Below, in pieces: positions 14,351 to 61,128 of a stretch of 64,000 nt of DNA. Both the position numbers and the translations under genes were made by a program. The DNA is from an uncultured Gammaproteobacteria bacterium (lineage in GTDB: Bacteria > Patescibacteriota > Patescibacteriia > UBA9934 > GWF2-40-263), in contig CAZIDX010000002.1 in NCBI GenBank assembly GCA_964538435.1, positions 41,566 to 105,565 of the forward strand, written 5' to 3'. Numbering within the stretch: position 1 is the stretch's first letter; every line of letters starts with the position of its first letter. The notes under the pieces are model-generated. The model was not told where the DNA came from. It worked only from the letters and a program-made list of their open reading frames with translations, and ran no database searches.

Positions 14351-14360
14351 TGACTTTTTC

Positions 14361-15848: not shown

Positions 15849-15852
15849 ACGT

Positions 15853-18076: not shown

Positions 18077-18079
18077 AGC

Positions 18080-20719
18080 TTATTTATGTTTTCGTAAAAT
18101 CAACAACTCTTTACCAAATTCAATAATCACAACCTTGATTAACCCCATAATAAGCAAGAGGCCCCACATATGCAAACCAAGCGGCACAATCTCGAACACT
18201 CTCTGCAACAGCGGAACAGTTGTTGCTGCAATCATCATTACAAACCCAATCGACACACCACCAATGAGCCAAAGGTTCGAAAATGGGTTAACTCTAAAAA
18301 TGCTTTTTCTAAATGTTCTTGTGGAGAACACATAGAAAAGCGTATCAATCCCCACAGCAACAAACATAATTGATCGAACGGCCTCTTCTGAGCGTTCTGT
18401 TGAGAGAAGCCAGAAAAAGAGCCCCAACAAAAACACATTCGCCACCACCGCAATCAACCCAATCATTTTAATCATGTCACGATTAAGCACACGCTCCTCT
18501 CGCTTACGAGGCTTGAGCCCCATAACATCCTGCTCTTTCTTTTCAAGCGCAAGTCCAATATGCGGAAAACTGTCAGCAAAGAAATTGATCCAAAGAATCT
18601 GAACAGGTAAAAGCGGTGCAGGAAGACCGGCCAGCATGGCAAATCCAATCAGGAACACTTCCGTAAAACTCCCAGCAATCAAATACACAGCCACCTTACG
18701 AATATTGTCAAAAATCACACGCCCCTCCTCAATCGCTGCGGAAATCGTTCCCAGATCATTATTCAGAATCACCACATCAGACGCTTGCTTTGCCACATCT
18801 GTTCCTGACCCAACCGCAATACCAATATCCGATGCTTTCAAAGCTGGTGCATCATTCACCCCATCACCTGTCATGGCCACAACCTCACCTCGTGCCTGCC
18901 ACGCTTTCACAATTCGAATCTTATGCCGAGGTTCCACGCGCGCATAAATCGATATCTTTGCCACCTGCTTCTTAAGATCTTCATCAGACCATGAATCAAG
19001 ATCTGTCCCCACTACCACACTTTCTTTGTCTGCATGAAGGCCTGCCTCAGCACCAATGGCACGTGCCGTTTCAGGATGATCACCTGTGATGATCACTGTG
19101 CGCACACCCGCCCGCTTTGCTGCCTTGATCTGCTGCTTTGCCTCTGCACGGAGCGGATCCCGAAGCCCAACAAATCCAAGAAAGGTGAAACCTCTTAGCT
19201 TATCCTTGTGAATAACATCTCCTTTTTCAACATCCTCTAAAACGGCAAGCGCAATAATCCGAAGCCCTTTTTGCGTTGCCTTAAGCACGCGCTTCTCCCA
19301 CTCTGCCTTTTTCTTTGCATCAAGCTTTACTGTTTTCTCTCCTCTTTGCACAAACGAACACATCTCAAACACCTTTCCAGGTGCCCCTTTCACAAACAAC
19401 GCCTGCGCATTCCCCCACTCATGCTTTGTCACCATGTACTTCCACGCAGAATCAAACGGAATCTCAGCAACACGCTTATGCGCCTTCTGCAGCGCATCAA
19501 GATCCATGTGCGTATCAAGCACACTGTGCATAAGCGCAGCCTCAGTTGGGCTCCCCTTCACCTCAACCTCTTCACCCTCAACAACGATTGCGTCATTACA
19601 AAGCCCGCTTATCTCAAACATCTTCCAAACAACACCATCCTCAGATCGATAAGCCTCTTCAATCGTAAATGTCTCATTAGCTGTCTCAACATCAGTAACC
19701 CGCATCTCCCCCTCAGTAATCGTCCCTGTTTTGTCTGAACAAAGAACAGACACGCTTCCAAGCGTCTCAGCTCCAACCAAACGTCGCACAAGCGACCGAC
19801 GCTTGAGAATCCTTTGCATTCCAATTGCCAAAATGATCGTCACAGACACGAGAAGTCCTTCTGGGATCGCTGCAACCGCAAGTGCAACACTCATTTCAAA
19901 CATGTGCACAAATGACTCTCCTCGAAACAAACCAAACGCAAACAAAACAAAGATGATCCCAGCAACTACGCCAGAAATCCACTTTGCAAGCACAGCAAGC
20001 TGCTCCTGAAGCGGCGTCTGTGTCTCATCGGTTTCCTGCACCATGCTAGAAATCTTCCCAAGTTCCGTCTTGAGCCCTGTCTCCACCACAACCGCTAAAC
20101 CACGACCACCTGTCACAACCGTCCCGGCATAAACCATGTTCTTGCGCTCGGCAAGCAAGGCACCCTCATTCAATTCTTCTGTGATCTTCTTGATCGGCAT
20201 GGACTCACCCGTAAGCGCAGCCTCATTCATGACAAGATCATGCGTTTCAAGCATGCGCGCATCAGCTGAAATTCTATTCCCTGTTCGAAGCACAAGAACA
20301 TCTCCAGGAACCAATTCCTTTGCACTCACCACAGTCTCTCGACCCTCTCGAACAACCGTTGCCTCAGGCTGCACAAGCGATCGTAAATGCTCAAGCGCCT
20401 GATTGGCTTTAAATTCCTGAATGAATCCAATAGCTGTGTTTACCACAACAGCTGCCCCAATCACCCAAGCATCCACCCACTCACCAAGCAAAGCACTGAT
20501 CACAGCCGCAGCAACAAGCACGTAGATAAGCGGAGAGGTAAACTGGTGAAGCAAAACAAGCCACCAAGGATCACTCTTTTTATGCGGAAGCTCATTCCTC
20601 CCATGTATCCCAATCCTTCTTTCCACAGTCGAGCCAGAAAGGCCCTCCATATCAACAGAGAGCGTCTTTAAAGCGTCTTCAGTTGTCTTTGCATGCCAAG
20701 TAGCCATGTAAAATCTCAT
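18080..20719 (-). CDS. P-type cation-transporting ATPase (type II, Ca/Mg-like)
   Basis: DKTGTITEGEM phosphorylation motif, TGDGVNDAPALK, GDHPETA, 10 predicted TMs. Confidence 0.9.
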   Translation of the reverse strand: MRFYMATWHAKTTEDALKTLSVDMEGLSGSTVERRIGIHGRNELPHKKSDPWWLVLLHQFTSPLIYVLVAAAVISALLGEWVDAWVIGAAVVVNTAIGFIQEFKANQALEHLRSLVQPEATVVREGRETVVSAKELVPGDVLVLRTGNRISADARMLETHDLVMNEAALTGESMPIKKITEELNEGALLAERKNMVYAGTVVTGGRGLAVVVETGLKTELGKISSMVQETDETQTPLQEQLAVLAKWISGVVAGIIFVLFAFGLFRGESFVHMFEMSVALAVAAIPEGLLVSVTIILAIGMQRILKRRSLVRRLVGAETLGSVSVLCSDKTGTITEGEMRVTDVETANETFTIEEAYRSEDGVVWKMFEISGLCNDAIVVEGEEVEVKGSPTEAALMHSVLDTHMDLDALQKAHKRVAEIPFDSAWKYMVTKHEWGNAQALFVKGAPGKVFEMCSFVQRGEKTVKLDAKKKAEWEKRVLKATQKGLRIIALAVLEDVEKGDVIHKDKLRGFTFLGFVGLRDPLRAEAKQQIKAAKRAGVRTVIITGDHPETARAIGAEAGLHADKESVVVGTDLDSWSDEDLKKQVAKISIYARVEPRHKIRIVKAWQARGEVVAMTGDGVNDAPALKASDIGIAVGSGTDVAKQASDVVILNNDLGTISAAIEEGRVIFDNIRKVAVYLIAGSFTEVFLIGFAMLAGLPAPLLPVQILWINFFADSFPHIGLALEKKEQDVMGLKPRKREERVLNRDMIKMIGLIAVVANVFLLGLFFWLLSTERSEEAVRSIMFVAVGIDTLFYVFSTRTFRKSIFRVNPFSNLWLIGGVSIGFVMMIAATTVPLLQRVFEIVPLGLHMWGLLLIMGLIKVVIIEFGKELLILRKHK

Positions 20720-20726
20720 TTAGGAT

Positions 20727-20792
20727 GATTCTTGAGTGCTTGCTCTCTCAAAACCATCCGGTTGGTTTTGAAGAGCAAGTGCTCGAATCATC
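20727..20792. terminator. long imperfect hairpin (about 28-bp arms) between GT4 stop and ATPase start; apex ctctctcaaaacc...ggttttgaagag
   Basis: Read directly; apex shared with hairpin at 39345-39385. Confidence 0.4.
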
Positions 20793-20805
20793 CGTTAAAT
20801 ACGTA

Positions 20806-21930
20806 TTAGTGACGAAGAGATCGGTAAACTTCTTCAGTTTTCGACACAACACTATCCCACGAAAACAGCGTCTGAATAATGTCTTGTCCCTGGCGACCAA
20901 CACTCCACAGCACCTCCTCATCAACCAAAAGCTCTTCAAGCTGCATCATAAGGTCTGCTGCATCTTTATTTCGAAAAGTAAATCCCGCCTTGTGGATAGC
21001 TTCAACATTTTCTGGAATATCAGACACAAGCACAGGCGTTCCCGCCCCCATTGCCTCCAAAACCACCACAGGAAGCCCCTCAGCCTCGGATGCATGCACA
21101 AATACTTTGGCATGCGCAAAGAGTTGCTTGAGCGCGTCTCCTGTCTGAAACCCAAGAAAAAGAATGTTATCGCTCCCGCGCGCCACTCGTCTGAGCTCTT
21201 GTTCATAGGAATCTCCATACGTCGATGCTCCAACAATAGCCACTTTCAAATCTTTCACCAAATCGGGCTTTGACTGCTCAAGCCGTCTATACGCCTCAAT
21301 GATGTACCACTGCCCCTTATGTGGCTCAAGCCGACTCACACTAAGGAGAAACTTCCCAGGCTCAAGACCAAGCACTTCAAGCTCGCCTGTTTCTTTCACA
21401 AGCTCTGGATTGGCACCGTTTGGAATATACATGACCTGCCGCTTGATCTTTTTACGCGCAAACACCTGAATCGAATGACTCACTGCAATCGTTGCATGCG
21501 GAAACCAACACGACGCCCACTCTCCAAAAAGCAGATAAGCTTTTGCAAACCTTCCCCACTTCCCATGAAATCGATCCTGTGAATGAAACGTAACAACAGT
21601 CCTAGTCTTCCTTTTAAGTAGACGCGGAATCCAAGCAAGCGTGGCTGGACCCACACCATGATAATGAATAATGTCGTAAGGATGAATGAGCGCGTCGATC
21701 GTAGCCAAAGTTGTGTGAACAATTGCCTCAAGATTCTTTCGATAAATCGTTGGCAGATACTTCACAAACACATCCCCATCCTCAACACGGCCATAGCGTG
21801 AACGCGCATAGACCGTAACAGCATGACCATTTTTTGAAAGGCGCCGGGCAAGCTGCGTAACATGTTGTTCAATCCCTCCTCCTCGCTCTCCAACATCAAA
21901 ACCCTTCTGCCCGATCATTGCGATACGCAT
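20806..21930 (-). CDS. GT4-family glycosyltransferase
   Basis: C-terminal EGLPVVVLEAMGAGTPVLVSD (E-x7-E type GT-B motif). Confidence 0.8.
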   Translation of the reverse strand: MRIAMIGQKGFDVGERGGGIEQHVTQLARRLSKNGHAVTVYARSRYGRVEDGDVFVKYLPTIYRKNLEAIVHTTLATIDALIHPYDIIHYHGVGPATLAWIPRLLKRKTRTVVTFHSQDRFHGKWGRFAKAYLLFGEWASCWFPHATIAVSHSIQVFARKKIKRQVMYIPNGANPELVKETGELEVLGLEPGKFLLSVSRLEPHKGQWYIIEAYRRLEQSKPDLVKDLKVAIVGASTYGDSYEQELRRVARGSDNILFLGFQTGDALKQLFAHAKVFVHASEAEGLPVVVLEAMGAGTPVLVSDIPENVEAIHKAGFTFRNKDAADLMMQLEELLVDEEVLWSVGRQGQDIIQTLFSWDSVVSKTEEVYRSLRH

Positions 21931-21993
21931 ATGCTTTATTTTACTTTGTTTCGAAAAAACGGTCTATTTAGCACAAAGATAAACGCACCAGGC

Positions 21994-22022
21994 TTGCCAA
22001 ACCCCAAAATACCTGTTATATT
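21994..22022 (+). promoter_or_regulatory. sigma70-like promoter TTGCCA-N17-TATATT for tRNA-Lys
   Basis: Hexamers and spacing read directly; tRNA starts about 16 nt downstream. Confidence 0.45.
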
Positions 22023-22037
22023 CTTGGCGCTGAGCAT

Positions 22038-22114
22038 GCGCCGGTAGCTCAGTCAGGTAGAGCAAGGGCCTTTTAAGCCCGGGGTCGTGGGTTCGAATCC
22101 CACTCGGCGTACCA
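22038..22114 (+). tRNA. tRNA-Lys (anticodon TTT), CCA encoded
   Basis: D-arm TAGCTCAGTCAGGTAGAGC, anticodon loop CTTTTAA, T-arm GTGGGTTCGAATCCCAC, acceptor with two G-U pairs. Confidence 0.8.
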
Positions 22115-22118
22115 TAAA

Positions 22119-22152
22119 ACAACCAGCTTTTGTTGGTTGTTTTTTGTTTGCC
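22119..22152 (+). terminator. intrinsic terminator after tRNA-Lys (aacaacca-gcttttgt-tggttgtt + T-run)
   Basis: Read directly. Confidence 0.55.
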
Positions 22153-22185
22153 GAGTAGCAATAACTTGACGACGGGTCAAAGTTC

Positions 22186-22221
22186 AACTTCCGATGTTTA
22201 ACTTCCGATGTTTAACTTTGC
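22186..22221 (+). repeat. tandem direct repeat (aacttccgatgttt) x 2.3
   Basis: Read directly; sits between a small palindrome ttgacgacgggtcaa and the 22248 ORF. Confidence 0.7.
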
Positions 22222-22247
22222 TAACTGATGAGATACCATAAAAACAT

Positions 22248-22469
22248 ATGAACACAACATCGATTACTCTCACAAAAAATGAAGCGCTTGTGCTCTTTGA
22301 ATTTTTAACAAGATTTTCAGAAACAGAAAGGTTAGAAATTAATAACCAGGCTGAAGAAAGAGTTCTCTGGGACCTGCAATGCACCCTTGAAAAAGAACTT
22401 CAAAATGAAACTGGATACGGATATGAAAAACACCTCGAGCAAGCAAGAAACCAAATCCGTGACAAGTAA
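22248..22469 (+). CDS. hypothetical small protein (73 aa)
   Basis: ORF only; weak. Confidence 0.3.
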   Translation: MNTTSITLTKNEALVLFEFLTRFSETERLEINNQAEERVLWDLQCTLEKELQNETGYGYEKHLEQARNQIRDK

Positions 22470-22482
22470 AAATGATTTGCAA

Positions 22483-22511
22483 AATTGACAATTTCCCTAA
22501 AATCTGCTATA
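22483..22511 (+). promoter_or_regulatory. consensus-like promoter TTGACA-N17-TATACT
   Basis: Read directly, 35 nt upstream of 22546 ORF. Confidence 0.5.
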
Positions 22512-22545
22512 CTTGTGCGCGTAATTCATAACTCCCAATACCACT

Positions 22546-22827
22546 ATGGAAGGAGTATGTGTTGCCTGCGGCGCAGGTGAAGTCGAACTAAACGACGAGA
22601 CCAAGTGCCCAGGATGTGTAGCACCTGCTGCACCAACTGAAGCCCCAGTTGAGGCTCCAGTCGAGGAAGCTCCAGCAGCCCCAGAGGTTGTTGAAGCTCC
22701 AGTTGAAGCTACTGAGGCTCCTGCAGAGGAACCTGTAGTTGAGGAAGCTCCTGTAGAAGCTCCAGCAGAGCCAGTTGAGGCTCCAGCCGAAGCACCTGCA
22801 GAAGAAGAGGTTCCACCTGCTGTTTAA
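22546..22827 (+). CDS. small zinc-ribbon protein (CxxC...CxxC) with Ala/Pro/Glu/Val-rich repetitive tail
   Basis: MEGVCVACG...CPGC then (APxEAPVE)-like repeats; SD GGAAGGAG overlaps start. Confidence 0.45.
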   Translation: MEGVCVACGAGEVELNDETKCPGCVAPAAPTEAPVEAPVEEAPAAPEVVEAPVEATEAPAEEPVVEEAPVEAPAEPVEAPAEAPAEEEVPPAV

Positions 22828-22873
22828 TTACAGAAAGCAAAACACCCAGCGCAAGCTAGGTGTTTTTCTTTTT

Positions 22874-23917
22874 CTAAAGTTGTTTAAGATCTTTGATGAG
22901 CTCATCTGTTGCCTCAGTATCAAGCAGCTTCCCAATCGCCTCTGACATCCGCCGGCGTTCCACCTCATCTTCAAGCGTGAGCCTGATCGTTTCCATAAGC
23001 GCCCACGGCGTCATGTCCTGCCCCACAACAATCGCCCCTTCTTTGATCGCACATGCATTCTTTTCTTGTGGTGAATCAGGAAGTGGAATCACAATCGATG
23101 GCATCCCAAGCGCGGCAAGCTCGGTGATTGTTGCAAGACCAGCCCTACAAACCACAAGATCCGCAACCGCATACGCATCCGCCATCTCATCAGAAAGCAA
23201 CTCAACTGCATTATAATTCCCGCCAATCTCCTCAAGCTCACCAAGCATCTTCCCCTTCCCTGTCACATGAATAACATTTGCGAACCGCTCAATCTCTTTC
23301 CCCATCTGGGCCATCGTCTTATTCATCCATATTGCCCCTGAACCACCCCCAAACACAAACACGGTCATCTTGCGCTCATCCAGCTTAAAAAACTCTTCAG
23401 CGCGCTCCCTGGACCCCTCAAGCACATGCGCACGCACAGGGTTCCCAACAAGCCTCGCCTTTTTCAATGCTTTAAGATTTTCCTTCCACGCAACGGTTAC
23501 AAGATTTGCAAATGGCGCAGTGAGTTTATTTGTCAAAATAATTTCCACATCTTGCTGATGCACCCAAACAGGAATCCTCAGAAGCTTTGCAGCAAAAATC
23601 ACAGGCACAGCCGTATACCCACCAGCCGATCCAACCAAGGCTGGCTTTTCTTTCATAAGCACCCTAAGAGCCTTGGCAAACGCCCACAAAATCTTAACTG
23701 GAAGCGTCACCCACTCAAGACTGACATACCGAGGAAGCTTGGCCACTGGCAACACATAAAACCGCGCACCAATCTGTTCCACCAACTCCCGCTCAGGCCC
23801 ATGAGGTGTTCCAACCCAAACAACATCAAGTTCTTCTCGTTTCTTCCAAGCGTCTATAACTGCCAAGAGTGGTGTAACAGGACCAAGCGTCCCCCCACCT
23901 GCAAATAAAACTTTCAT
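22874..23917 (-). CDS. murG: undecaprenyldiphospho-muramoylpentapeptide beta-N-acetylglucosaminyltransferase
   Basis: N-terminal MKVLFAGGGTLGPVTPLLAV, GT-B fold, position after ftsW. Confidence 0.85.
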   Translation of the reverse strand: MKVLFAGGGTLGPVTPLLAVIDAWKKREELDVVWVGTPHGPERELVEQIGARFYVLPVAKLPRYVSLEWVTLPVKILWAFAKALRVLMKEKPALVGSAGGYTAVPVIFAAKLLRIPVWVHQQDVEIILTNKLTAPFANLVTVAWKENLKALKKARLVGNPVRAHVLEGSRERAEEFFKLDERKMTVFVFGGGSGAIWMNKTMAQMGKEIERFANVIHVTGKGKMLGELEEIGGNYNAVELLSDEMADAYAVADLVVCRAGLATITELAALGMPSIVIPLPDSPQEKNACAIKEGAIVVGQDMTPWALMETIRLTLEDEVERRRMSEAIGKLLDTEATDELIKDLKQL

Positions 23918-23918
23918 A

Positions 23919-25025
23919 TTATTTTGTATGCTTCGATATATTAAGCATCACCCCTATCGCTCCCATGGTAATCGCAAGCGATGTTCCTCCATAACTAATG
24001 AATGGAAGCGGCACACCAGTAATCGGCATAAGCGCCACCATTGAGCCAATGTTTACAAACGCTTGCACTGCAATCCAAGCTCCAATTCCCACAACAACAT
24101 ATTTTGCAAAATTATCCGGTGCACGCTTTGCAATCTCAATCGCGCGCCACACAAACAAGAGAAAGAGAACAAGCACAAGCACCCCAACAACAAATCCCAT
24201 CTCCTCAGCGATAATCGCATATACACTATCACCCGCCACCTCAGGAAGATATTGAAACTTCTGCCTTGAGTGACCATACCCAAGACCGAAAAAACCACCA
24301 GAACCAATTGCAAGAAGCGCCTGGTTAATATGATATCCAATCCCAAGAGGATCAAGCTCAGGATGAAGGAATGTTGTAAAACGAGCGGCTCGATAAGGCT
24401 CAAGTGCAATCAAAAGCGCGAGTCCAGAAAACCCAGCGCTCACAAGACCAATGATATAGGAAACTGGAGCGCCCGCAGCAAAATACACAATGAGTGACAT
24501 GGCCGCAATAATACTCATGGTTCCAATATCCGGCTGCAAAATCATCAAAAACATGATCGTGCCAAGCACAAGAACAAACGGCAAAAATCCTTCTCCCACA
24601 TTCTTCACACTGTGACGATCACGCTGAGCAAGCCAGGCAGCCAAGTAAAACAAAAAAGTCAGCTTCACAATCTCAGATGGCTGAAGTGAAAACACACCAC
24701 CAATATTGATCCATGAATGCGCTGTTCCAATACCCGCAGAAAGACCTGGAATAAAAACAAGCACGAGCAGCACCCCTGAAAGAATAAGAAGATGCCATGC
24801 ATGCTTTTGCCAAAACGTATACGGAATTCGAGAAAATGCTATGAGCGCACCAAGACCAGGAATCAAGCCGAAAATGAGTTGGTGCTTTACAAAGTAGTAG
24901 CTGTCAGAGAAGTTCGCGTATCCACTCGGAGCTGACGCACTTAGCAGCATGATCAAGCCAAAAACAATGATCGTACCTATAATGATCATCAGCCAGATAT
25001 CCATTGATCCTGATGTACGTCGCAT
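23919..25025 (-). CDS. ftsW: SEDS-family peptidoglycan glycosyltransferase FtsW/RodA
   Basis: 10-TM protein with conserved SEDS blocks, between mraY and murG. Confidence 0.85.
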   Translation of the reverse strand: MRRTSGSMDIWLMIIIGTIIVFGLIMLLSASAPSGYANFSDSYYFVKHQLIFGLIPGLGALIAFSRIPYTFWQKHAWHLLILSGVLLVLVFIPGLSAGIGTAHSWINIGGVFSLQPSEIVKLTFLFYLAAWLAQRDRHSVKNVGEGFLPFVLVLGTIMFLMILQPDIGTMSIIAAMSLIVYFAAGAPVSYIIGLVSAGFSGLALLIALEPYRAARFTTFLHPELDPLGIGYHINQALLAIGSGGFFGLGYGHSRQKFQYLPEVAGDSVYAIIAEEMGFVVGVLVLVLFLLFVWRAIEIAKRAPDNFAKYVVVGIGAWIAVQAFVNIGSMVALMPITGVPLPFISYGGTSLAITMGAIGVMLNISKHTK

Positions 25026-25036
25026 GAATGAAAAAA

Positions 25037-26095
25037 TTACACGACCAACGCATCAAGAAGCGCGACCGCAACCCCAACAGACGCCGCAACCGTAGACACT
25101 ACCCAAAGCCGCATCACAATCGTGCACTCAGGCCAGCCAATGGCTTCAAGGTGATGATGAAACGGTGCTGAGCGCAAGAATTTTCGTTTAAACACTTTTC
25201 TCCAACCAACTTGGACAATCACAGAAAGAGATTCTAGAACAAAGATAAGTCCAATGATCGGAAGCAAAAGCGCTGAGTTTGTGAGCATGGCTACAATCCC
25301 GAGCGTGACCCCCAATGACATCGCCCCTGTATCACCCATAAACACCTGTGCTGGATGAATATTGAACCACTGGAACGCAAGAAGGGCTCCAAGAATCACT
25401 CCACAAAACACAGCAAGGTCAAACCTTCCCTGTGCAAACGCAATAATTGAAAACGCCCCAAACGCTGCTAACAAAGGCCCACCTGCCAATCCATCCAAAC
25501 CATCCGCTTCATTAACAGAAAACGCTGTTGAGACAATCACAAGAATAAAGAATGGAACATACCAGAATCCAATATTGAAATCTCCAATAAAAGGAACATG
25601 CAGCAGATCCCAATCAAGCTTCACGCGGAACCACCATGCGCCAATCACAGCAATGGCCGTATAAATCATGAGCCTATGCCGCATCCGAAGCCCACCTCCC
25701 TTTGGACCAATACCCTTTGCATTGTAGTAATCATCAACAAGCCCCACGAGTGCTGAAGCAACAAGAGCTCCAAGCGGAAGCAGAGTTTCCCCTCGAGACA
25801 AAAAGTTGAGACGCGCCAAGAGCGACCCTTCTGGAAACAACGGCGCAAGGTAATAAAACAAAATCGCAAGCGCAAACACTGTCACCCACACCAAGATACC
25901 TCCCATGGTAGGCGTCCCTTTCTTCTTTGAATGAAGCTTTGCAAAGATCGGCGCAGAAGACTCAGGACGAATCGACTTGCCCATCCCCCACCTCTTAAGC
26001 CCACGAATAAGACCAGGAGCCCAAACAAACGCAACAACAAACGCAAACGCAGACAGTAAAAGTACGCGAACGATTTCAAATGATTCAAGGGTCAT
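25037..26095 (-). CDS. mraY: phospho-N-acetylmuramoyl-pentapeptide transferase
   Basis: Polytopic, PNPT family motifs (DD...NxxNxxDGxDGL-like blocks), conserved position. Confidence 0.9.
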   Translation of the reverse strand: MTLESFEIVRVLLLSAFAFVVAFVWAPGLIRGLKRWGMGKSIRPESSAPIFAKLHSKKKGTPTMGGILVWVTVFALAILFYYLAPLFPEGSLLARLNFLSRGETLLPLGALVASALVGLVDDYYNAKGIGPKGGGLRMRHRLMIYTAIAVIGAWWFRVKLDWDLLHVPFIGDFNIGFWYVPFFILVIVSTAFSVNEADGLDGLAGGPLLAAFGAFSIIAFAQGRFDLAVFCGVILGALLAFQWFNIHPAQVFMGDTGAMSLGVTLGIVAMLTNSALLLPIIGLIFVLESLSVIVQVGWRKVFKRKFLRSAPFHHHLEAIGWPECTIVMRLWVVSTVAASVGVAVALLDALVV

Positions 26096-44394: not shown

Positions 44395-46002
44395 ATGCGA
44401 CCACTCACGCTCCGAAGAAACTATAAATGGATTGCAGCAACCCTTCTTGTTGTGTGTTTTTTCGTTGCAATGCTTGGAAACGAACGCATCATTCCCTATG
44501 TATCCTCGTTTAGCTGGAGCATGGGTGACGCATGGCCAATAGCACAACCGATCGAAGTAGAACCTGCTGAGCCTGACACACTCTTCTCTTTAGATTTCAT
44601 GCACGAAATTGAAATTGAAATGGATGAAGCTGATCACGAAACCATGATCCTTACTTTTGAAGAGACAGATGAAAAAGAATTCTTCCATGCATCAGTCACC
44701 ATCGATGGAACACATTTCGAAGACGTTGGCATCAGACTAAAGGGAAACTCAACGCTCTCTTCATCACTTGGACTAGGTATGGGGCCCTCTAACAAGATGA
44801 GCAACGTAACAAGCGACATCCCTTACCTCATCAAACTCAACGAGTACGTATCTGGCCAAGATTACCAAGGCTACGAACAAATCGCACTGCGCAGCCAGTT
44901 TAAAGACACGGCAATGATGCGCGAAGTCTTAGGTTTCCAACTCCTGGAAATGATGGATATTCCCGCACCTCATTCAACCTATTCTGTTGTAACGTTTAAT
45001 GGTGAACTGTCGCTCTACATGATGACAGAAGTTGTTGTCGAAGAATTCGTAGAAAAATACCTTATCGATGGAGATGAGGAAATGGGCAATCTCTTCAAGG
45101 CGTCTCCTGGCGCGAAACTTGAGTACACAAGTGACGATCCTCTTGACTACGCATCTTTTGAGCAAAAGACAAACGTAAACGAAGAGGATGTCTATCAAAT
45201 CATTGAGCTTGCAGAATTCATTTCCAATTCAACAGACGAAGAATTCGCAAACAATCTTGATAACTACATCGATGTTGAATCCACTCTCAAGTACATCGCT
45301 TTCTGCAACATCATCGTCAACCTCGATTCGTTTGCAAGCAATGGAAACAACTACTATCTCTACCAAGACCCAGAGACTGATCAATTTTCTGTTGTCCCAT
45401 GGGATCTCAACGAATCGTTTGGTGGATTCTGGCGATATATCGGAGAAACCTATGAACTAGACATGTTCTTTGACAACGAAGAAAAGACAGGTGGTCCTGG
45501 CGGTCAACAAAGGATGATGCCAAATAATGAAAATCAACAAATGCAAAACGGAAATCAAATCATGCAACCCGTTGCTTTTGAGGCAAGCCAAGACCAACAA
45601 CTCCAACAAGGCATGCGACCAAACAAGCGCATGAAACGTATTCCTGAAGGATTCAATCCTCCAACAAATTTCGAACCACCAGAAGGCTTTGATCCTGATG
45701 CCGAGCAACCAACCCACAAGGTCATGTCAATGCAAAACACCTTTGTTACACGACTATTAGAAACCGAACCATACAAAACAATGTATGTAGACATTGTGAA
45801 AGACTTGATCGACGATGAACTGTCTATCGAATCGGTTATAGATATAGTTGAGGACTTGCAAGCCTTTGTAGACAGCGCGAACGCAAGTTATGGCTTCTGG
45901 GAAAACGAAATCGAACATGACTACGGAACAAAAGAGTTGCTCGAATTCATTCGCAATCGATACAAATTCCTTTACGCAGAACTGGCAAGTGTGGAAAACT
46001 AA
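44395..46002 (+). CDS. CotH-family atypical protein kinase-like protein
   Basis: Size, GIRLKGNSTLSS block, and VTC/DUF4956 neighbourhood typical of bacterial CotH genes. Confidence 0.6.
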   Translation: MRPLTLRRNYKWIAATLLVVCFFVAMLGNERIIPYVSSFSWSMGDAWPIAQPIEVEPAEPDTLFSLDFMHEIEIEMDEADHETMILTFEETDEKEFFHASVTIDGTHFEDVGIRLKGNSTLSSSLGLGMGPSNKMSNVTSDIPYLIKLNEYVSGQDYQGYEQIALRSQFKDTAMMREVLGFQLLEMMDIPAPHSTYSVVTFNGELSLYMMTEVVVEEFVEKYLIDGDEEMGNLFKASPGAKLEYTSDDPLDYASFEQKTNVNEEDVYQIIELAEFISNSTDEEFANNLDNYIDVESTLKYIAFCNIIVNLDSFASNGNNYYLYQDPETDQFSVVPWDLNESFGGFWRYIGETYELDMFFDNEEKTGGPGGQQRMMPNNENQQMQNGNQIMQPVAFEASQDQQLQQGMRPNKRMKRIPEGFNPPTNFEPPEGFDPDAEQPTHKVMSMQNTFVTRLLETEPYKTMYVDIVKDLIDDELSIESVIDIVEDLQAFVDSANASYGFWENEIEHDYGTKELLEFIRNRYKFLYAELASVEN

Positions 46003-54999: not shown

Positions 55000-55286
55000 A
55001 TCATCTCAAATTTTGAATAACAAAGAAAGCCGCTAGCTGATAACACATTGAAAATGTGAATAACTCAACCTCTCTTTAGGTCACACAAAGACCTGCATCA
55101 AAGCCAGAATAACAACCCGCTTTGAACACTTATATTGCACAAAGTCCCTGCTGTCGCATGATTAGACAAATCACTTCTTGACAGCTTTTTGGTAGAAAGG
55201 CTAACGTTAGTGTGCGATTAACACTTACAAGATTTGTCGCTATTCACCTCCCCTGCTTCCAAAGCAGGGTTGAGAACACCAGAAAC

Positions 55287-55315
55287 ATTGACAAACCTTG
55301 AATTAAGTGCTAATT
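55287..55315 (+). promoter_or_regulatory. candidate promoter TTGACA-N17-TAATTT for GC-rich operon
   Basis: Read directly; about 100-nt leader then SD AGAGG. Confidence 0.4.
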
Positions 55316-55417
55316 TCGGCGGCTGTAACCAACCGGAATACAGAAGCCAAAACAAGAAGTTACTTAGCAACCCTCGCCCTTTCCCAAACCAACCCTAGAC
55401 CAAGAGGTAGAGGCCCC

Positions 55418-56266
55418 ATGCCAACCATGGACATTCAAGGCCCCGAGCACGTCTACACGGTCACGCACCGCGTGGGCGAGTGCAGCCACTACCGTCTCTA
55501 CACGTGTCTCCAACAGGACACAGACCGGCAGTGCATCATGATGATCGCGGCCGAGCGTCGCAACAACGCAGACCTCGAGCGCGCCGCGTACCTCCTCAAG
55601 CAACTCCGCAAGGAAGGCGACCTCAACGAGGAAGACTACGCCAAGGATCCCAAGAACGAAGGTCGTATGCTCAACTACCAGCTCGGCTTCCCCGAGGTGA
55701 TGGACAGCTTCATCTTCGAAGAGCAGGATCACCGGCGCATCCTCATCCTGGCGTTCGACAACATCCAGGAGATCGACGGCCTGGTCCCCCTCCTGAACAT
55801 TCGGGAGAAGGACCTCAAGCGCCTCGACATCAAGACCGGCGCGTGGATCCTGGGCAAGGCCCTCAAGACCCTCAAGCTAGCGCACAGCATCGGGATCTCC
55901 ATGGGTACCATGGATGCCTCCCGCATCCTGGTCCAGCTCGACGAGCACTACGTGATCATGTTCGACTGGTGCTACGCCAGGACCGGCACAGACCAGGTCC
56001 CGAGAGACCTGGCACGCCGCGACATCATGAACGTAGCCCGCGCCGTCATCACTGCCTTGGGCGGAGACTGGCGCAGCCGTCACCTCCCCTTCCCCGGCAA
56101 CGAGGAAGGGTACGGCAGGTTCACCGAAATCCTCTTCCGACTCGCTGGCGGAGCACAGACCAGCGCAGCCATGGCTCACCAGACGTTCTACGAGATGGTA
56201 GACGCGGCCTGGGAGCCTGGCTTTCACCCCGCAACCACCCACCCTCTCGAAAAGACAGGAGATTGA
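55418..56266 (+). CDS. protein-kinase-fold protein, probably pseudokinase/atypical kinase; GC-rich
   Basis: LAHSIGISMGTMDASRILV aligns to LHSxGIVHRDLKPSNILV (HRD degenerate), IMFDWCYAR to DFG region, alphaC-like LERAAYLLKQL. Confidence 0.45.
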   Translation: MPTMDIQGPEHVYTVTHRVGECSHYRLYTCLQQDTDRQCIMMIAAERRNNADLERAAYLLKQLRKEGDLNEEDYAKDPKNEGRMLNYQLGFPEVMDSFIFEEQDHRRILILAFDNIQEIDGLVPLLNIREKDLKRLDIKTGAWILGKALKTLKLAHSIGISMGTMDASRILVQLDEHYVIMFDWCYARTGTDQVPRDLARRDIMNVARAVITALGGDWRSRHLPFPGNEEGYGRFTEILFRLAGGAQTSAAMAHQTFYEMVDAAWEPGFHPATTHPLEKTGD

Positions 56267-56268
56267 TC

Positions 56269-57438
56269 ATGGGACGAGGAGTTCTCTCACGAGTAGCACA
56301 CACCAGGACGCGTGACACCGCCACCCGCGGAGGTCGCAGCGCCACCCACCGGGCCGAAGAGCGCGTGCGCATGGGCAAGGGACTCGACGTGTCCGTGGAC
56401 CCCAAGGGGTACCCGCACCTGGGTCCGGTCCGGCTCAGCCTGCCGCGCTTCGACCAGCGTGAAGACGGTCTCTGGGAGCTCACCAGCGGCATGCCCGTCC
56501 CGGTGGAGACCCTGCTCGACGGTACCGGTTCCATGGGGCACGATTTCATCGCCGCCGTCATGGCCGTCCTGCCCGACGCGTTCGATGCGTTCACCTCCGG
56601 AACCATGCCGGTGCTGGGGCGCTACGACGTGCAGATCGCCAACGCCATCTTCGGCGACACGGTCGACACCCACAACGGGCGTCACGTGCTGTGCCGGACC
56701 CAGTTCGAGATGGCCGACAAGATCTCGGTCCAGGTCACGAACCTGGCCCCGACGCACGGTGGTGCCGGCAACGGCAAGGAAGACCCCCAGTTCGGGCTCT
56801 TCGCGGCCGCCTACCTGACCAACGCCAGGCTCTGGAAGTACGGTCTGCGCGGCTACCACTTCGTCTTCACCGACGACAACTCGGTGATGGAGGTCGAGGT
56901 GAGCTGGCTGAAGCGCATCTTCGGGGATGACGTCCTCGAGCGTGCGTGCGAGAACGGCCACGACTTCTCCGGTGTGCGCAGCATCCCGACCCAGCAGGTC
57001 GTGCAGGATCTGCTGAGCCACACCAACGCCTTCGTCTTCCTGCGGCAGGGCAACAGCATCCGCTCCTGGCAGCGCCTCTACGGCAACGACCGCTGCATCG
57101 TCATGGACGACATGCCCGACACCTTCCACCTCTACGAGGCCGTGGTGATCGGGCTGACCGAGGGCATCATCAACCTGGAGACGGCCGAGACCTTCCTGAT
57201 CGAGCACGGCGCCGACCAGCGCCAGGCCCAGCGCATCGTGCACGCGGTCTCGCACATCCCCCTGGGCGCCCAGACCCTGCGCGAGAACTTCCACCGGATC
57301 CCGGTCGCCGGCGATCTGTTCCGCGAGAAGACCGACCTCTGGCCCCTCACCGCGGACGAGATCGCTGCGCACACCGGCGAGGCCTCGGACGGCGCCAGCG
57401 GCTCCAGCGAGGGTAGCGACAAGGTCCAGTGGCTCTAG
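56269..57438 (+). CDS. PP2C-like (PPM) phosphatase-fold or vWA-like protein; GC-rich
   Basis: LLDGTGSMGHDFIAAV resembles PP2C motif-2 VADGMGGHxAG; QREDG resembles RxxNED; GDTVD resembles GDSR; alternative reading as vWA MIDAS DxTxS. Confidence 0.35.
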   Translation: MGRGVLSRVAHTRTRDTATRGGRSATHRAEERVRMGKGLDVSVDPKGYPHLGPVRLSLPRFDQREDGLWELTSGMPVPVETLLDGTGSMGHDFIAAVMAVLPDAFDAFTSGTMPVLGRYDVQIANAIFGDTVDTHNGRHVLCRTQFEMADKISVQVTNLAPTHGGAGNGKEDPQFGLFAAAYLTNARLWKYGLRGYHFVFTDDNSVMEVEVSWLKRIFGDDVLERACENGHDFSGVRSIPTQQVVQDLLSHTNAFVFLRQGNSIRSWQRLYGNDRCIVMDDMPDTFHLYEAVVIGLTEGIINLETAETFLIEHGADQRQAQRIVHAVSHIPLGAQTLRENFHRIPVAGDLFREKTDLWPLTADEIAAHTGEASDGASGSSEGSDKVQWL

Positions 57439-57469
57439 GGACGAGCTGAATCCAGCTCTACGACAACGA

Positions 57470-57500
57470 CCCCGACTAGCGCATGCTAGTCGGGGCTTTC
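57470..57500 (+). terminator. terminator ccccgactagc-gcat-gctagtcgggg-CUUUCC
   Basis: Perfect 11-bp stem. Confidence 0.6.
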
Positions 57501-57563
57501 CATGAGATCATCGTGATAAACACGGTGACATCGTGGTTAGAACCACCAACCCGAGAGGTACAC

Positions 57564-58970
57564 GTGAAGAAGTGTTACATCGTCACCGACCTCGGACCCG
57601 GGGACGGTGGAAAAGGTGGCATCGTCCACCGCATCGCAACCCTGCTGCGAGCCATCTGCATCATCAAGGCAGGCGGCTTCCAAGGCAACCACGGCGTGCA
57701 CACCTCCCGAGGTGAACGCATGGACTTCAGTCAGTGGGGCTGCGGAACCCTCGAAGGAATCCGGACCCACATCTCGACTGACCTCATTGTGAGTCCTGAA
57801 GGACTCCTCAACGAAGCCGATCAGCTCCAGCGCCAGTGCGGAATCAACAACCCCTGGAGCATGCTGACCATCGATGAAAACGCACTGTGCTCAACCGAGT
57901 TCCACGGCGTGGCCTCGCGCATCAAGGAGATGGCCCGCGGTAAAAACCCGCGTGGAACCATCGGATCCGGCGCGGGCCAGTGCCATCGCTACAACCAGAG
58001 CCACCCCAAGCTCTCCATCTTCATGCGCGACCTGCGCGACCCCAAGACCCTGCGCTTCAAGCTCAACCTGATCCGGCTGCACATCGCATCAGATCTCATC
58101 GAGATCATCGAAGGTGGCTTCCTGCCTACGGACAACGAGCGTGTTCAAGACGAACTGAGCTTCATCATGAACCCTCATTCGGTCAACTACGTACTCGAGC
58201 GCTTCCTCATGGTAGGCAGGCTTGCAAACATCGTGGACTCAGACTACATGGCTCGCGAAATCCTCTCGAAGGATGGAGTCGTGGTCGTAGAGTCCTCGCA
58301 CGGTGTCCTCACTGACAACCTCATGGGCTTTGCCCCGCACACCAGCGCGATCCGCACGATCCCGCTCCTGCGCGAAAAACTCATCAAGGAAGCTGGCTAC
58401 GACGGACAGATCGTACATGTGGCCTGCCACCGCGCCTACAACGTGCGCCACGGCGCTGGCCCCATGCCAACAACCGATCCGAGTCTGAACGAAACCCTGC
58501 TCCCAGGCTCGTCCAATGACGAGAACCGCTGGCAAGGACATGTCCGGGTTGGTCCACTCGACCTCCCGCTCCTGCGCTACGCCATCGCGGTCAGCGGCCC
58601 CGAGCTCTTCAATGGCCTGGCTCTGACCTGGTTCGACCAGATCGTGAGAAACAATGTTTGGCACGTGGTGCATCGCTACAGCAGCGGAACCGAAGACCGA
58701 AAGTTCTTCACTGCTGACGGCGAGCTGCGGATCACAGCACTGCCAAGCAAGGCAGAGCAACACGCGTACACGCGCGAACTCGGAGACCAGCTCAGCCGCT
58801 GCGTTCCCGAGATCACCTCCATCCCAATCCCAGACGGACTGAGCCCAGAGGAGCTCTTTCATCTGGTCGAGGACGTCCTCAACAACGCGCTGGGTATCGA
58901 GCTTGCCATGCTCTCGCTCGGCCCCACCGAAACGGACAAGGTCCTCATGGCTCCCAAGAGCCAACGGTAA
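57564..58970 (+). CDS. divergent adenylosuccinate synthetase (PurA)-family protein with substituted substrate-binding motifs; GTG start after SD GAGAGG
   Basis: GDGGKGG (PurA GDEGKGK), GNHGVHT (GGHNAGHT), RAYNVRHGAGPMPT (KAYSTRVGAGPFPT), LSLGPTETDKVLM (ISTGPDRTETM); but TTGRGIGP becomes TIGSGAGQ, GAQG becomes SSHG, GATTGRRRRTGW becomes NRWQGHVRVG. Confidence 0.7.
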   Translation: MKKCYIVTDLGPGDGGKGGIVHRIATLLRAICIIKAGGFQGNHGVHTSRGERMDFSQWGCGTLEGIRTHISTDLIVSPEGLLNEADQLQRQCGINNPWSMLTIDENALCSTEFHGVASRIKEMARGKNPRGTIGSGAGQCHRYNQSHPKLSIFMRDLRDPKTLRFKLNLIRLHIASDLIEIIEGGFLPTDNERVQDELSFIMNPHSVNYVLERFLMVGRLANIVDSDYMAREILSKDGVVVVESSHGVLTDNLMGFAPHTSAIRTIPLLREKLIKEAGYDGQIVHVACHRAYNVRHGAGPMPTTDPSLNETLLPGSSNDENRWQGHVRVGPLDLPLLRYAIAVSGPELFNGLALTWFDQIVRNNVWHVVHRYSSGTEDRKFFTADGELRITALPSKAEQHAYTRELGDQLSRCVPEITSIPIPDGLSPEELFHLVEDVLNNALGIELAMLSLGPTETDKVLMAPKSQR

Positions 58971-58978
58971 CCAAAACA

Positions 58979-59006
58979 CCCGGACGCAACGCGCGCCCGG
59001 GTTTTC
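58979..59006 (+). terminator. terminator cccgg-N12-ccggg-UUUUCUAAUU
   Basis: Read directly. Confidence 0.55.
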
Positions 59007-59035
59007 TAATTCAATCTCATCCCCCATGGAGATGG

Positions 59036-59122
59036 CGACCTGAGGGCCTCGATGGCCCGAAAGGTCGTGATACCACTCTCCTCCACCGTTCGAGGAGAGT
59101 GCAACGTGCGCTCTAAGGCGCA
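59036..59122 (+). ncRNA. candidate structured RNA / triple-hairpin GC-rich element (strand uncertain)
   Basis: Three consecutive hairpins: cgaccu-ga-gggcc-ucgau-ggccc-gaa-aggucg; cucuccuc-caccguuc-gaggagag; ugcgc-ucuaag-gcgca; no ORF. Confidence 0.2.
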
Positions 59123-59217
59123 GGGGACAATTTTTGTGAGGTCAGCTTGCTGCCGAACAAAGAATTCGTCCCCGAGCCCTCTCTCTTAAAACTTACAGGC
59201 CTAGTAAAGGCGAAAAA

Positions 59218-61128
59218 TTAACGCTCTAGCTTAGGTAAAAACACACGATCTACATACAACTTCGTCGCAACCTGCCTATACCCCGAATCATAGAACATAC
59301 TCTCCCCATCCATCCGATCCGCCTTTTCTGAATGCAATCCACCAAACCGCGGATTAAACCGCTCGTATCCATTATGCATAAGCCGATACTGAAGCGTATC
59401 CCGCTCCATTTCTTCAATACAAATCGCTCGATGATCAATACCTTGAAACTCTCGCCCCTGATCATACAAATACGGCGCAAGCACTTTCTGCCTGAGTTCT
59501 TGTACAGCCCCAGGCTCTCCATCCCACACTGCCCCAAAGAGCGCATAGGCCCAAATACTTTCTGCGCGGTGCGGATCAAACTCTTCATGATCCTGAATCC
59601 AAAGCTCTTCGCCCCGCTCCTCAAGCCAAAACTCTGTAACCTCTCCACCAATCATCTCATGCCCGAAAAGTTCTGTGAGTGCTTCCCGCATCTTCTTTGT
59701 ATCTTTCTCTTGCATCCCTTCTCGCACAAACACAGCAACATCAAGATCAGAATCCTCCCGACCATACCCCTTGAGCCGAGACCCAAACGGAAGCACAACT
59801 GGATACACATATTTTGAAAGTACAGGGTGATTCTCAAGCTCAGTTGCAAGCCGAGTAACCTCTTTGAGCTCTGGCTTCATGCGCTTCATGTTCTCAGAAA
59901 ACGGCCCAGCAAGCTTTGGTGCTTTAAGCCCGAGATTCTCAAGCTGCATCTTACTCATGACTCCGTGCCTCGTGGCATGGTGGAACGTTTTTGCAAGCAC
60001 TCCACGAAGCTCTTCTGGCCCCTGAGTCCAAAGATCCATAAGTTTAGCTCCATAATCATCAAATAATTCTTGAGCAAGCAAATCGCGATCCTCAGCCAAC
60101 GCATCAATCGCGCGCAAGAGCCCATGAATACAAGCTTCCTGCACAAGCAGATCACCAGAATCAAGAAGTGCATTTCCATTAAATTCTTCATCACGCAGTG
60201 CTTCTGCAATCATCTCCCCTGCCTGCTCTATAGCAATACGTTTTCCATCTTTGCGAAGCCACGCCTCCCGTTTCTTTGTAATGCCATCATGCTTTTCTGA
60301 ATCAATCCGAACAAACTCAGCCTCAAGCCATGTTGCAACACTTCCTGCAGTCACCTCAGCAAGCGATGGTTTCTCGGCGCGCACAGGTACCTTCACACCA
60401 ACCCCCATGCGATCAAGATCAATCTGCTCGATCAAACCTTTTTCAAGAAGCACGGGAATGGTATCTGCCACACTCTGCACCAACAAAGGGTCAGAATCCT
60501 TAAGAAGCTCAAATACATCTCCAGGCTCAAGCCAGCCTTTTTCCATAAGCCCTGGAATAAGGTGAGCTGCCTTTACCACCCGCTCAAGATCTCCGTCCCG
60601 CGTTTCAATATCCATCACATCCCCATCAACAAAGTTCGCGCGCACATCATGTGTGCCCAAGAGCCGATCCCAAGCATGCAAATACTTCTCTCGAAGCGTG
60701 AGCGCTGCATCATCAAGATCACCTGTCTTAATCTTCCAATCCGCATCAGGCAAAAGCTCAAACGGAAGATAGAGCAATACTCTCTGATATTCAGAATCCT
60801 CTTCAAGCATCTTGCTAAGCGACTCATAGAGCTCTGCAACCTGACCCTCAGCAAGCTCACCAAGCTCCACAGCTCGCTGAACAGAAACATCAGGTCGTGA
60901 CAAAGCCGCAAACACCGTGTCGAGTCTCTCACTGAGCTGACGACGCTCCTTAACCTGACGCTGAAACTCAGGATTGTCTACAACTTCCTTTGGTAGCACC
61001 TTCTCAGCACTCCCAACATCTAACAAAACCTCACTCGCTGAGGGTTGAAAATATTGCTCAATTTTGGCCTCTTCGACATGTTTTTCATGTTCTTGTGTCA
61101 TATACGCACAGTGTAGCAGATTCCCCAA
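59218..61128 (-). CDS. large hypothetical protein with C-terminal Pol-beta-type nucleotidyltransferase domain
   Basis: FGSRLKGYGREDSDLDVAVFV fits GSx10DhDh; about 450-aa helical N-terminal region of unknown function. Confidence 0.45.
   Translation of the reverse strand: MGNLLHCAYMTQEHEKHVEEAKIEQYFQPSASEVLLDVGSAEKVLPKEVVDNPEFQRQVKERRQLSERLDTVFAALSRPDVSVQRAVELGELAEGQVAELYESLSKMLEEDSEYQRVLLYLPFELLPDADWKIKTGDLDDAALTLREKYLHAWDRLLGTHDVRANFVDGDVMDIETRDGDLERVVKAAHLIPGLMEKGWLEPGDVFELLKDSDPLLVQSVADTIPVLLEKGLIEQIDLDRMGVGVKVPVRAEKPSLAEVTAGSVATWLEAEFVRIDSEKHDGITKKREAWLRKDGKRIAIEQAGEMIAEALRDEEFNGNALLDSGDLLVQEACIHGLLRAIDALAEDRDLLAQELFDDYGAKLMDLWTQGPEELRGVLAKTFHHATRHGVMSKMQLENLGLKAPKLAGPFSENMKRMKPELKEVTRLATELENHPVLSKYVYPVVLPFGSRLKGYGREDSDLDVAVFVREGMQEKDTKKMREALTELFGHEMIGGEVTEFWLEERGEELWIQDHEEFDPHRAESIWAYALFGAVWDGEPGAVQELRQKVLAPYLYDQGREFQGIDHRAICIEEMERDTLQYRLMHNGYERFNPRFGGLHSEKADRMDGESMFYDSGYRQVATKLYVDRVFLPKLER

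Follow-up and report, generated by a model that had tools for sequence, protein, structure and literature searches.

A PurA-family protein without the aspartate site, linked to a vWA protein and a predicted pseudokinase in a conserved cassette of Patescibacteria

Introduction

What is the role of a gene of the adenylosuccinate synthetase (PurA) family that has lost the binding site for L-aspartate, and that is kept beside a protein-kinase fold and a von Willebrand factor A (vWA) protein? This question is raised by three adjoining genes, here named g1, g2 and g3, in a stretch of 64,000 nucleotides (the window) from contig CAZIDX010000002.1 of assembly GCA_964538435.1 (positions 41,566 to 105,565, forward strand). 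The organism was deposited as an uncultured Gammaproteobacteria bacterium and is placed among the Patescibacteriota in GTDB. A preliminary description of the locus took the three genes for a kinase/phosphatase pair joined to a divergent PurA homologue, and proposed a horizontally acquired, phospho-regulated nucleotide-modifying or defence/toxin-like module.

The analysis reported here suggests another answer. The cassette appears to combine a PurA-family enzyme whose substrate pocket is new with two obligate partners that are likewise new, and the copy in the window would be an ordinary member of a widespread, unstudied cassette. As the preliminary description had supposed, the association is an undescribed one: a full-text literature search found no account of a vWA protein, a pseudokinase and a PurA-like protein occurring together.

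Results and Discussion

The PurA-like protein g3

The assignment of g3 to the PurA family, made in the preliminary description, is confirmed. The protein matches the Pfam family PF00709 (Adenylsucc_synt) with an E value of 7e-29 (101 bits, against a cut-off of 27) and the phage protein family phrog_1211 with an E value of 2e-35. The solved structures matched by g3, both with the single protein and with the family profile, are all named adenylosuccinate synthetase.

The residues of g3 were compared with those of E. coli PurA (1ade) through a profile alignment. In the E. coli enzyme, Asp13, Lys16, His41 and Asp333 serve phosphoryl transfer and guanine binding. Their equivalents are present in g3, together with the P-loop (GD.GKG), and the four residues are invariant or nearly so in its family. 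With the GTP-binding and catalytic residues kept, this protein would be expected to phosphorylate a carbonyl oxygen with GTP, as does PurA (EC 6.3.4.4), with which it shares the fold family.

There is one major difference, however, between g3 and PurA. The substrate L-aspartate is held in the E. coli enzyme by Thr300, Thr301, Arg303 and Arg305. The first three of these residues align to Trp323, Gln324 and His326 of g3, and Arg305 is deleted, so that the aspartate signature is lost, as first described. Over the whole segment, G-A-T300-T301-G-R303-R-R305-R of PurA aligns to N-R-W-Q-G-H-V-(gap)-R of g3, with Arg304 replaced by Val. Across the family, the three positions are occupied by Trp/Tyr, Gln and His/Lys. 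The replacement is itself an invariant motif (N-R-W/Y-Q-G...R): Gln324, Gly325 and Arg328 are invariant in the copies from bacteria of the Candidate Phyla Radiation (CPR) and from phage I3, and the Gln, Gly and Arg recur in the copy of a Rhizobium phage (see below).

Other positions have changed as well. Asn38 of 1ade is replaced by Gln40, Thr129 by Ile133, Gln224 by His246, and Lys331 by a Trp. Thr239 aligns to Ser261, with Thr260 adjoining. The alignment at Arg143 is ambiguous because of a two-residue gap, and an invariant Arg142 is found nearby. The earlier statement that the IMP-binding signature is lost thus holds for Asn38, Thr129 and Gln224, but several of the positions that contact the nucleotide phosphate retain a similar residue in g3.

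In addition, g3 is about 35 residues longer than PurA, shares 25–30% identity with the solved PurA structures, and is nearly always linked to a vWA gene. Judged by the aspartate site, it is strictly speaking not a PurA. From these residues, g3 looks like an active enzyme with a rebuilt pocket for its third substrate.

A known precedent for a PurA paralogue with changed substrate use is the phage enzyme PurZ (N6-succino-2-amino-2′-deoxyadenylate synthase). PurZ retains aspartate as a substrate, and its gene is accompanied by datZ, mazZ and dpoZ (PMC12884076). In comparison, g3 lacks the aspartate site and has a pseudokinase, a vWA protein and a nucleotidyltransferase gene as its neighbors; the locus does not have the make-up of a PurZ/Z-genome system. 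The PHROGs database merges PurZ and g3-like proteins in phrog_1211, which accounts for the RefSeq name '2-aminooxy adenylosuccinate synthetase' on mycobacteriophage genes.

The vWA protein g2

The g2 protein has the Rossmann-like α/β fold of vWA domains, and its metal-ion-dependent adhesion site (MIDAS) is intact and is predicted to bind metal. The MIDAS residues Asp84, Thr86, Ser88 and Asp202 are located at the ends of predicted strands 76–84 and 195–201, and they are invariant in 72 sequences, including that of phage I3. The preliminary description had preferred a PP2C phosphatase for this protein, with a vWA domain as the alternative. The alternative is the correct one; PP2C is ruled out by the structure and by Pfam scans of the 72 relatives. 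The sequence family is a remote one, as the Pfam VWA models have no match in g2 of the window, only one of the 72 relatives matches VWA_4 (E 0.007), and a sequence search of the Protein Data Bank with the family profile gave no matches.

vWA/MIDAS domains are modules for binding protein ligands. In NorD–NorQ, BchD/ChlD and CoxE, the partner of the vWA protein is an AAA+ ATPase of the MoxR type. The partner of g2, in contrast, is a PurA-fold enzyme, and the g2 family has N- and C-terminal extensions of its own.

The two ends of g2 are conserved. Nearly all members of the family start with MG(x)(G/S)..(W/F/Y) and end with (R/W)L (window positions 56269–56290 and 57427–57438). Both ends are kept in relatives of about 330 residues at roughly 25% identity (P0365–P0391) and in both phage copies, which suggests that both are functional. 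Among viral structures, the best match to the g2 model is A0A3G3M5V4 in BFVD (Mycobacterium phage Sauce; E 1.6e-13, TM score of 0.66 on the query). At 595 residues this protein is far longer than g2, and it could represent a further vWA partner in fused or extended form.

The kinase-fold protein g1

The bilobal fold of protein kinases is present in g1, and its catalytic loop is degenerate, both in agreement with the preliminary description. The homologue search for g1 returned just three proteins, and its model was therefore built on a shallow alignment. There is no glycine-rich loop. At the positions of the β3 Lys, the HRD Asp, the catalytic-loop Asn and the DFG Asp, the window protein has Met42, Gly163, Arg169 and Asp183, respectively.

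These positions vary to different extents among 64 members of the family. The β3 position is mostly Gln (37 members) or Lys (22), and the HRD position is variable, with Asp in only eight. The catalytic-loop Asn is kept in 53 members and the DFG-type Asp, which is fairly conserved, in 48. His177, a residue unrelated to the kinase catalytic set, is invariant. PF00069 has no match in g1 of the window at E values up to 1, and none of the family reaches the gathering score; weak Pkinase matches are found in eight of the 64 (best E 3e-4). A Pfam scan, the check proposed at the outset, identifies g3 but finds neither Pkinase in g1 nor VWA or PP2C in g2.

We predict from these residues that g1 is a pseudokinase. 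It differs from the bacterial pseudokinase domains described for Rv3910 (the MviN kinase-homology domain, PDB entry 3uqc) in being a stand-alone, soluble protein of about 280 residues from another sequence family.

With no PP2C domain in g2 and a degenerate kinase in g1, the terms 'kinase/phosphatase pair' and 'phospho-regulated' in the preliminary description are left without a basis. The same applies to the likeness to TerY-P triads drawn there. Such a triad, according to Anantharaman, Iyer and Aravind in 2012, is reportedly formed by the vWA protein TerY, a PP2C phosphatase and a Ser/Thr kinase. In both systems, a cytosolic bacterial operon encodes a vWA protein beside one with the fold of Hanks-type kinases. 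The cassette, however, has no PP2C protein and no Ter context, its kinase-like protein is without catalytic residues, and its third partner is PurA-like.

Distribution and gene order of the cassette

Homologues of g3 number in the hundreds, at 40–57% identity, in genomes assigned by name or bin to Uhrbacteria, Saccharibacteria, Paceibacterota and further Patescibacteria. In public databases, the relatives of g1 and g2 are hypothetical proteins without domains, and those of g3 are mostly unnamed or called adenylosuccinate synthetase. To examine the gene order, 80 species-representative loci were fetched with 10-kb flanks and searched with g1 and g2, giving 83 loci in all. The arrangement g1-g2-g3, with all three genes on one strand, is kept in 69 of the 83, nearly all from Patescibacteria, and most of the misses are due to contig ends or to very weak similarity to g1. 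This co-occurrence agrees with the idea of one functional unit, as put forward in the preliminary description. When 1.84 billion representative proteins were searched with a profile, only 750 clusters of the g2 family were found, 291 of them at E ≤ 1e-10, and a scan of IMG/VR with this family found only three loci.

Clustering of the open reading frames (ORFs) in the flanks shows that a convergent gene for a protein of about 617 residues with a nucleotidyltransferase domain is present in 75 loci, with its position and strand relative to the cassette unchanged. Based on this synteny, it may be functionally part of the cassette. In the window, PF01909 matches this neighbor with 25.2 bits (cut-off 21) over residues ~445–492. 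Its G+C content is that of the backbone, with a third-position value (GC3) of 0.43, and it is 48.5% identical to the copy from Uhrbacteria (43–56% for g1–g3). The same clustering does not find purB among the conserved neighbors.

Immediately after g3, at least 54 loci have a fourth gene in the same direction (g4, about 400 residues, for example L004:5458-6633), the product of which has an N terminus of weak SAM/HhH-like character. This gene is absent from the window (58971–59217) and from the related genome GCA_900089805.1 (an independent assembly, to be referred to as L001), and tblastn found no remnant of it.

The pair of g2 and a PurA-like gene recurs in four further contexts: phage I3, Rhizobium phage RHph_TM30 and two metagenome contigs, where a PurA-like gene is found downstream of distant relatives of g2. 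It follows that the invariant core is vWA plus PurA-like, usually with a kinase-fold protein. On one of the two contigs (L086:1365-1862), a gene similar to nucleoside 2-deoxyribosyltransferases (PF15891) lies between the vWA and PurA-like genes. One of the 750 clusters of the g2 family is a fusion of g1 and g2 (P0299, 679 residues; L085:1323-3362, Logan SRR14209495), the g1-like part of which is recognized by hhalign (99.2%). It is located on a single short contig and could be a frameshift artefact; the gene downstream of it is dnaX-like and not PurA-like.

Related modules in phages

The closest relative of the cassette is the gp270–gp273 module of cluster C mycobacteriophages, itself uncharacterised. 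In the Bixzunavirus phage I3, gp270 ('kinase'), gp271 and gp273 ('PurA-like') are homologous to g1, g2 and g3 (23%, 22% and 31% identity, respectively), and the order of the genes is unchanged. They fall in the same three PHROGs as the cassette proteins, and about 200 records of cluster C mycobacteriophages carry the module. There are two differences from the cassette. An extra gene for a protein of 112 residues (gp272, phrog_3263), with no relation to g2 or g3, is present in the phage, and gp270 keeps the β3 Lys and scores as a kinase domain, unlike g1 of the window.

In Rhizobium phage RHph_TM30, the g2 homologue gp018 (hhalign 99.2%) is located directly upstream of gp019, a PurA-like protein of the same subtype (99.8%). 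A kinase-like gene was looked for beside this pair, and no convincing candidate was found. The I3 genes lie near a polynucleotide kinase gene, and those of RHph_TM30 are near a phosphoribosyltransferase-like gene and a cytidylyltransferase gene.

Residence of the cassette in the chromosome

The rise in G+C content noted in the preliminary description, at about 55.4 kb and over 3.6 kb, is readily seen. In 500-nt windows, the values are 0.43–0.50 up to 55.2 kb, 0.56–0.67 at 55.25–59.0 kb, and 0.48–0.50 thereafter. In 2-kb bins over the 64 kb, 0.51 is exceeded nowhere outside the cassette. The excess is located at synonymous sites: GC3 is 0.83, 0.91 and 0.76 for g1, g2 and g3, against 0.33–0.51 in eight host genes, and the second-position G+C and the amino-acid make-up are nearly equal to those of host genes. 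The third-position ratio of C to G is about 2:1 in the cassette, as in the other plus-strand genes of the host.

Horizontal acquisition of the module had been proposed. In L001, however, the cassette is found at the same site, between the same HI0933-like and nucleotidyltransferase genes and with both junctions the same. Amino-acid identity between the window and L001 is 74–81% for the cassette, 84–87% for the flanks and 71% for the nucleotidyltransferase neighbor. Across the loci, pairwise distances correlate with those of the neighbor gene with r of 0.77–0.78 for g1 and g3 and 0.60 for g2. No integrase, no tRNA gene within 30 kb and no bracketing direct repeats were found at the borders of the cassette, so that atypical G+C is the only mark of a recent island that it carries. 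From the shared site in L001, the flank-like divergence, the neighbor fixed in 75 loci and the host-like third-position skew, we conclude that the cassette is an ancient, long-resident element that is fixed in the chromosomes of Patescibacteria, and not a recently imported island. Judging from synteny and best matches, the host is probably a Patescibacterium itself.

The proposal of a recently acquired island with a phospho-regulated, nucleotide-modifying defence or toxin module is by now largely refuted and has very little probability left. In its favor, GC3 in the cassette is far above the value of about 0.45 in the flanks, homologues exist in phages, the cassette is richer in G+C than its flanks in many lineages, and the poorer fit of the g2 distances allows for some lateral exchange. 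Against it stand, besides the residence data, the nature of g1 and g2 and the results with PADLOC-DB 2.0, in which g1, g2 and g3 have no matches at E values up to 1. Nothing was found there for g4 or for gp271 and gp273 of phage I3 either; gp270 of I3 matches generic kinase-domain models, and the nucleotidyltransferase neighbor has weak matches to the short nucleotidyltransferase models of PDC-S09, a candidate system (best E 3.8e-5). Moreover, a neighbor that is fixed across many CPR classes is unlike the variable content of defence islands. An assembly chimera was also considered, with foreign GC-rich DNA fused into a contig of 46% G+C. A Logan contig of SRR8146443 is 100% identical to the window over 55332–58982 and ends at both G+C boundaries, bridging neither, which speaks in favor of a chimera. 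The left and right junctions are nonetheless the same in the independent assembly L001, with which the spacer ahead of g1 shows conservation right to the start codon, and at least 69 other loci have g1–g3 followed by the same convergent gene. As L001 has the same junctions, a chimera is excluded for practical purposes.

The raised synonymous G+C is not peculiar to the window. GC3 exceeds that of the flanks in most lineages for the cassette genes, though not for the nucleotidyltransferase neighbor, and by more than 0.2 in 17 of 80 loci. The median excess across the loci is +0.11 for g2 and +0.18 for g4, the highest of all. Occasional replacement of the cassette, GC-biased gene conversion and selection are candidate causes, given that the g2 distances fit those of the neighbor less well.

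The genome also shows an extreme strand asymmetry. GC skew is between -0.07 and -0.36 in every 2-kb bin of the window, the minus-strand genes have C at 0.08–0.15 of third positions, and the host plus-strand genes have G at 0.14 and A at 0.31–0.38.

Layout and signals of the locus

The features of the locus are collected in Table 1. Each of g1, g2 and g3 is preceded by a Shine-Dalgarno site of the GGAG type, and g2 starts 2 nt after the stop codon of g1, both as first described. The GTG start of g3 agrees with the N terminus of the family; a longer ORF from the ATG at 57483 would begin within the hairpin that precedes g3. In the protein database, the L001 copy of g3 (P0001) does begin within this hairpin, 27 codons too early.

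Table 1. Coordinates of the cassette genes, candidate signals and conserved neighbor in the window
Feature	Position	Strand	Remarks
g1, predicted pseudokinase with protein-kinase fold	55418..56266	+	282 aa; alternative start ATG 55427 fits the family N terminus slightly better
g2, cytosolic vWA protein with MIDAS (D84-x-T86-x-S88, D202), N-terminal extension and C-terminal helical domain	56269..57438	+	389 aa
g3, divergent PurA-family (adenylosuccinate-synthetase-like) enzyme	57564..58970	+	468 aa; GTG start; PF00709, phrog_1211
Candidate promoter, TTGACA, 17 nt, (TGc)TAATTT	55288..55316	+	inferred, read from the sequence; block kept in the otherwise diverged L001 spacer
Perfect hairpin (11 bp, GC-rich) in the g2–g3 spacer	57470..57495	+	ΔG about -36 kcal/mol for the region, z -6.7; weak U-tract
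Terminator-like bidirectional hairpin and U-run closing the unit	58978..59011	+	hairpin 58978-59002, then UUUUCUAAUU
Convergent conserved neighbor, protein with Pol-beta-type nucleotidyltransferase domain	59218..61128	-	636 aa; PF01909

Hairpin terminators had been proposed both after g2 and at the end of the unit. Hairpins are present at both places, and the closing one is followed by a U-run. The one between g2 and g3 has a weak U-run, however, and was not called by a terminator scan. The candidate promoter was likewise passed over by a consensus scan, because its -10 hexamer matches at three of six positions.

The spacer of 418 nt between the divergent HI0933-like gene and g1 (55000–55417) has several blocks in common with L001. 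These include a second TTGACA (55178–55183), followed by the palindrome CTAACGTTAG at about 55206–55215, and a hairpin at 55253–55269. Three spaced copies of TCAAAnnnnGAATAACAA are found in the spacer, at 55006, 55049 and 55098. An Rfam scan for a riboswitch or leader upstream of g1 gave only tRNAs at the gathering score, and one match at chance level (E 0.38).

The coding strand was checked because high G+C gives rise to long antisense ORFs. Differences between the window and L001 at codon positions 1, 2 and 3 number 39, 24 and 92 for g1, 72, 62 and 127 for g2, and 77, 56 and 193 for g3. They thus gather at the third position, and the plus-strand frames are the real genes. An antisense ORF for 361 residues (56287–57372) is just 60% conserved with L001 and is a GC-rich artefact, as are two minus-strand gene calls across g1 and g2 in L001 (L001:7718-9699), one of which matches this ORF. 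As a result of these calls, the protein database lacks the homologues of g1 and g2 from that genome.

Elsewhere in the window, a cell-wall and division cluster with Mur ligases, MurD, FtsW, MurG and a MraY-type transferase is located at 12853–26095. Together with genes for a P-type Ca-ATPase, for CTP synthase and, at 44395–46002, for a CotH kinase-like protein, it looks like ordinary chromosomal backbone, without genes of mobile elements.

Possible function of the cassette

The reading that we prefer, with less than even confidence, is that the cassette encodes a multi-subunit, GTP-dependent enzyme that converts purine nucleotides and uses a nucleophile other than aspartate, with a role in purine interconversion or salvage. 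In this mechanism, g3 would bind GTP and transfer its γ-phosphate to the carbonyl oxygen of a nucleoside 5′-monophosphate, as PurA does with IMP. Since its L-aspartate pocket is rebuilt, g3 would then pass the activated carbon on to some amine that is not free aspartate bound in the manner of PurA. The g1 and g2 proteins would be non-catalytic partners in a complex with g3, acting as a scaffold, a regulator or a presenter of the substrate.

A role in purine-nucleotide interconversion or salvage is suggested by the carriers. These are episymbionts of the CPR that have no de novo synthesis of nucleotides, and lytic phages in which the copies lie among genes of nucleotide metabolism. Both would be parasites of the nucleotide pools of other cells. 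The absence of de novo nucleotide synthesis in CPR bacteria is described in PMC10187176.

Several observations weigh against the multi-subunit reading. The proposed complex rests on gene order and on one fusion that is possibly artefactual. The substrate is not readable from the sequence, and the acceptor may not be IMP, as the alignment of Arg143 is ambiguous and Thr129 and Gln224 are changed. Finally, the strongly raised GC3 of the cassette is not accounted for by this model.

Two other explanations have to be weighed against it. In one, g3 is a plain adenylosuccinate synthetase that takes salvaged IMP and L-aspartate towards AMP, with g1 and g2 as accessory or unrelated proteins. The Pfam score far over the cut-off, the PurA names given to many homologues by NCBI and JGI, and the conserved catalytic Asp, Lys and His and guanine-binding Asp all agree with it, as does the need of CPR bacteria to interconvert salvaged purines (PMC10187176). 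It is nevertheless an unlikely explanation, because the aspartate-binding residues are not merely lost but exchanged for an invariant motif, and Gln224 and Lys331 are changed as well. Moreover, g3 hardly ever occurs apart from g2, also in phages, which would have no need of a housekeeping PurA, and purB is not a conserved neighbor. In the other explanation, the PurA-like enzyme acts on a macromolecule, coupling a purine nucleotide to an amine of a protein, for example the N-terminal glycine of g2, or modifying a base of RNA or DNA, with g1 and g2 as substrate or targeting subunits. The loss of the pocket for a small molecule, the conserved ends of g2 at about 25% identity, the protein-binding nature of vWA/MIDAS domains, the polynucleotide kinase gene near the phage copy and the conserved nucleotidyltransferase neighbor are consistent with this. 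The evidence is circumstantial, however; the conserved ends may mark docking sites only, and we know of no PurA-fold enzyme that acts on macromolecules. We consider this explanation improbable, more so than a plain PurA.

Within the reading of a multi-subunit enzyme, a bolder version can be formulated, which we hold to be doubtful, about as much so as a plain PurA. The cassette would be a new enzyme complex in which the PurA-fold subunit activates a nucleotide carbonyl with GTP and couples a nucleophile other than aspartate to it. Ammonia might serve as this nucleophile, which would take IMP to AMP in a single step with no need of PurB; another candidate is a group that the vWA and pseudokinase partners present, perhaps the N-terminal glycine conserved in the vWA protein. 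If true, this reaction would be an overlooked core step in the exploitation of host nucleotide pools by CPR episymbionts and, independently, by some large phages.

Implications

The family-wide excess of synonymous G+C within AT-leaning genomes is an evolutionary puzzle of its own. For experiments, the cassette is tractable in the phages of Mycobacterium smegmatis that carry the module, as these can be engineered. The cassette is also found in metagenome-assembled genomes of animal-associated Saccharibacteria, including Candidatus Nanosyncoccus, and may therefore be present in cultivable Saccharibacteria.

Patescibacteria account for a large part of the diversity of bacteria, and their processing of scavenged purines is poorly understood. 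Two of the three cassette proteins have no Pfam family, and the third is probably mis-annotated in CPR models; metabolic reconstructions that count a gene of the g3 type as PurA may therefore be wrong. Across many CPR classes and in about 200 mycobacteriophages, a 'PurA' with no aspartate site is kept together with a vWA protein and a pseudokinase, which marks an uncharacterised, probably multi-subunit nucleotide enzyme.

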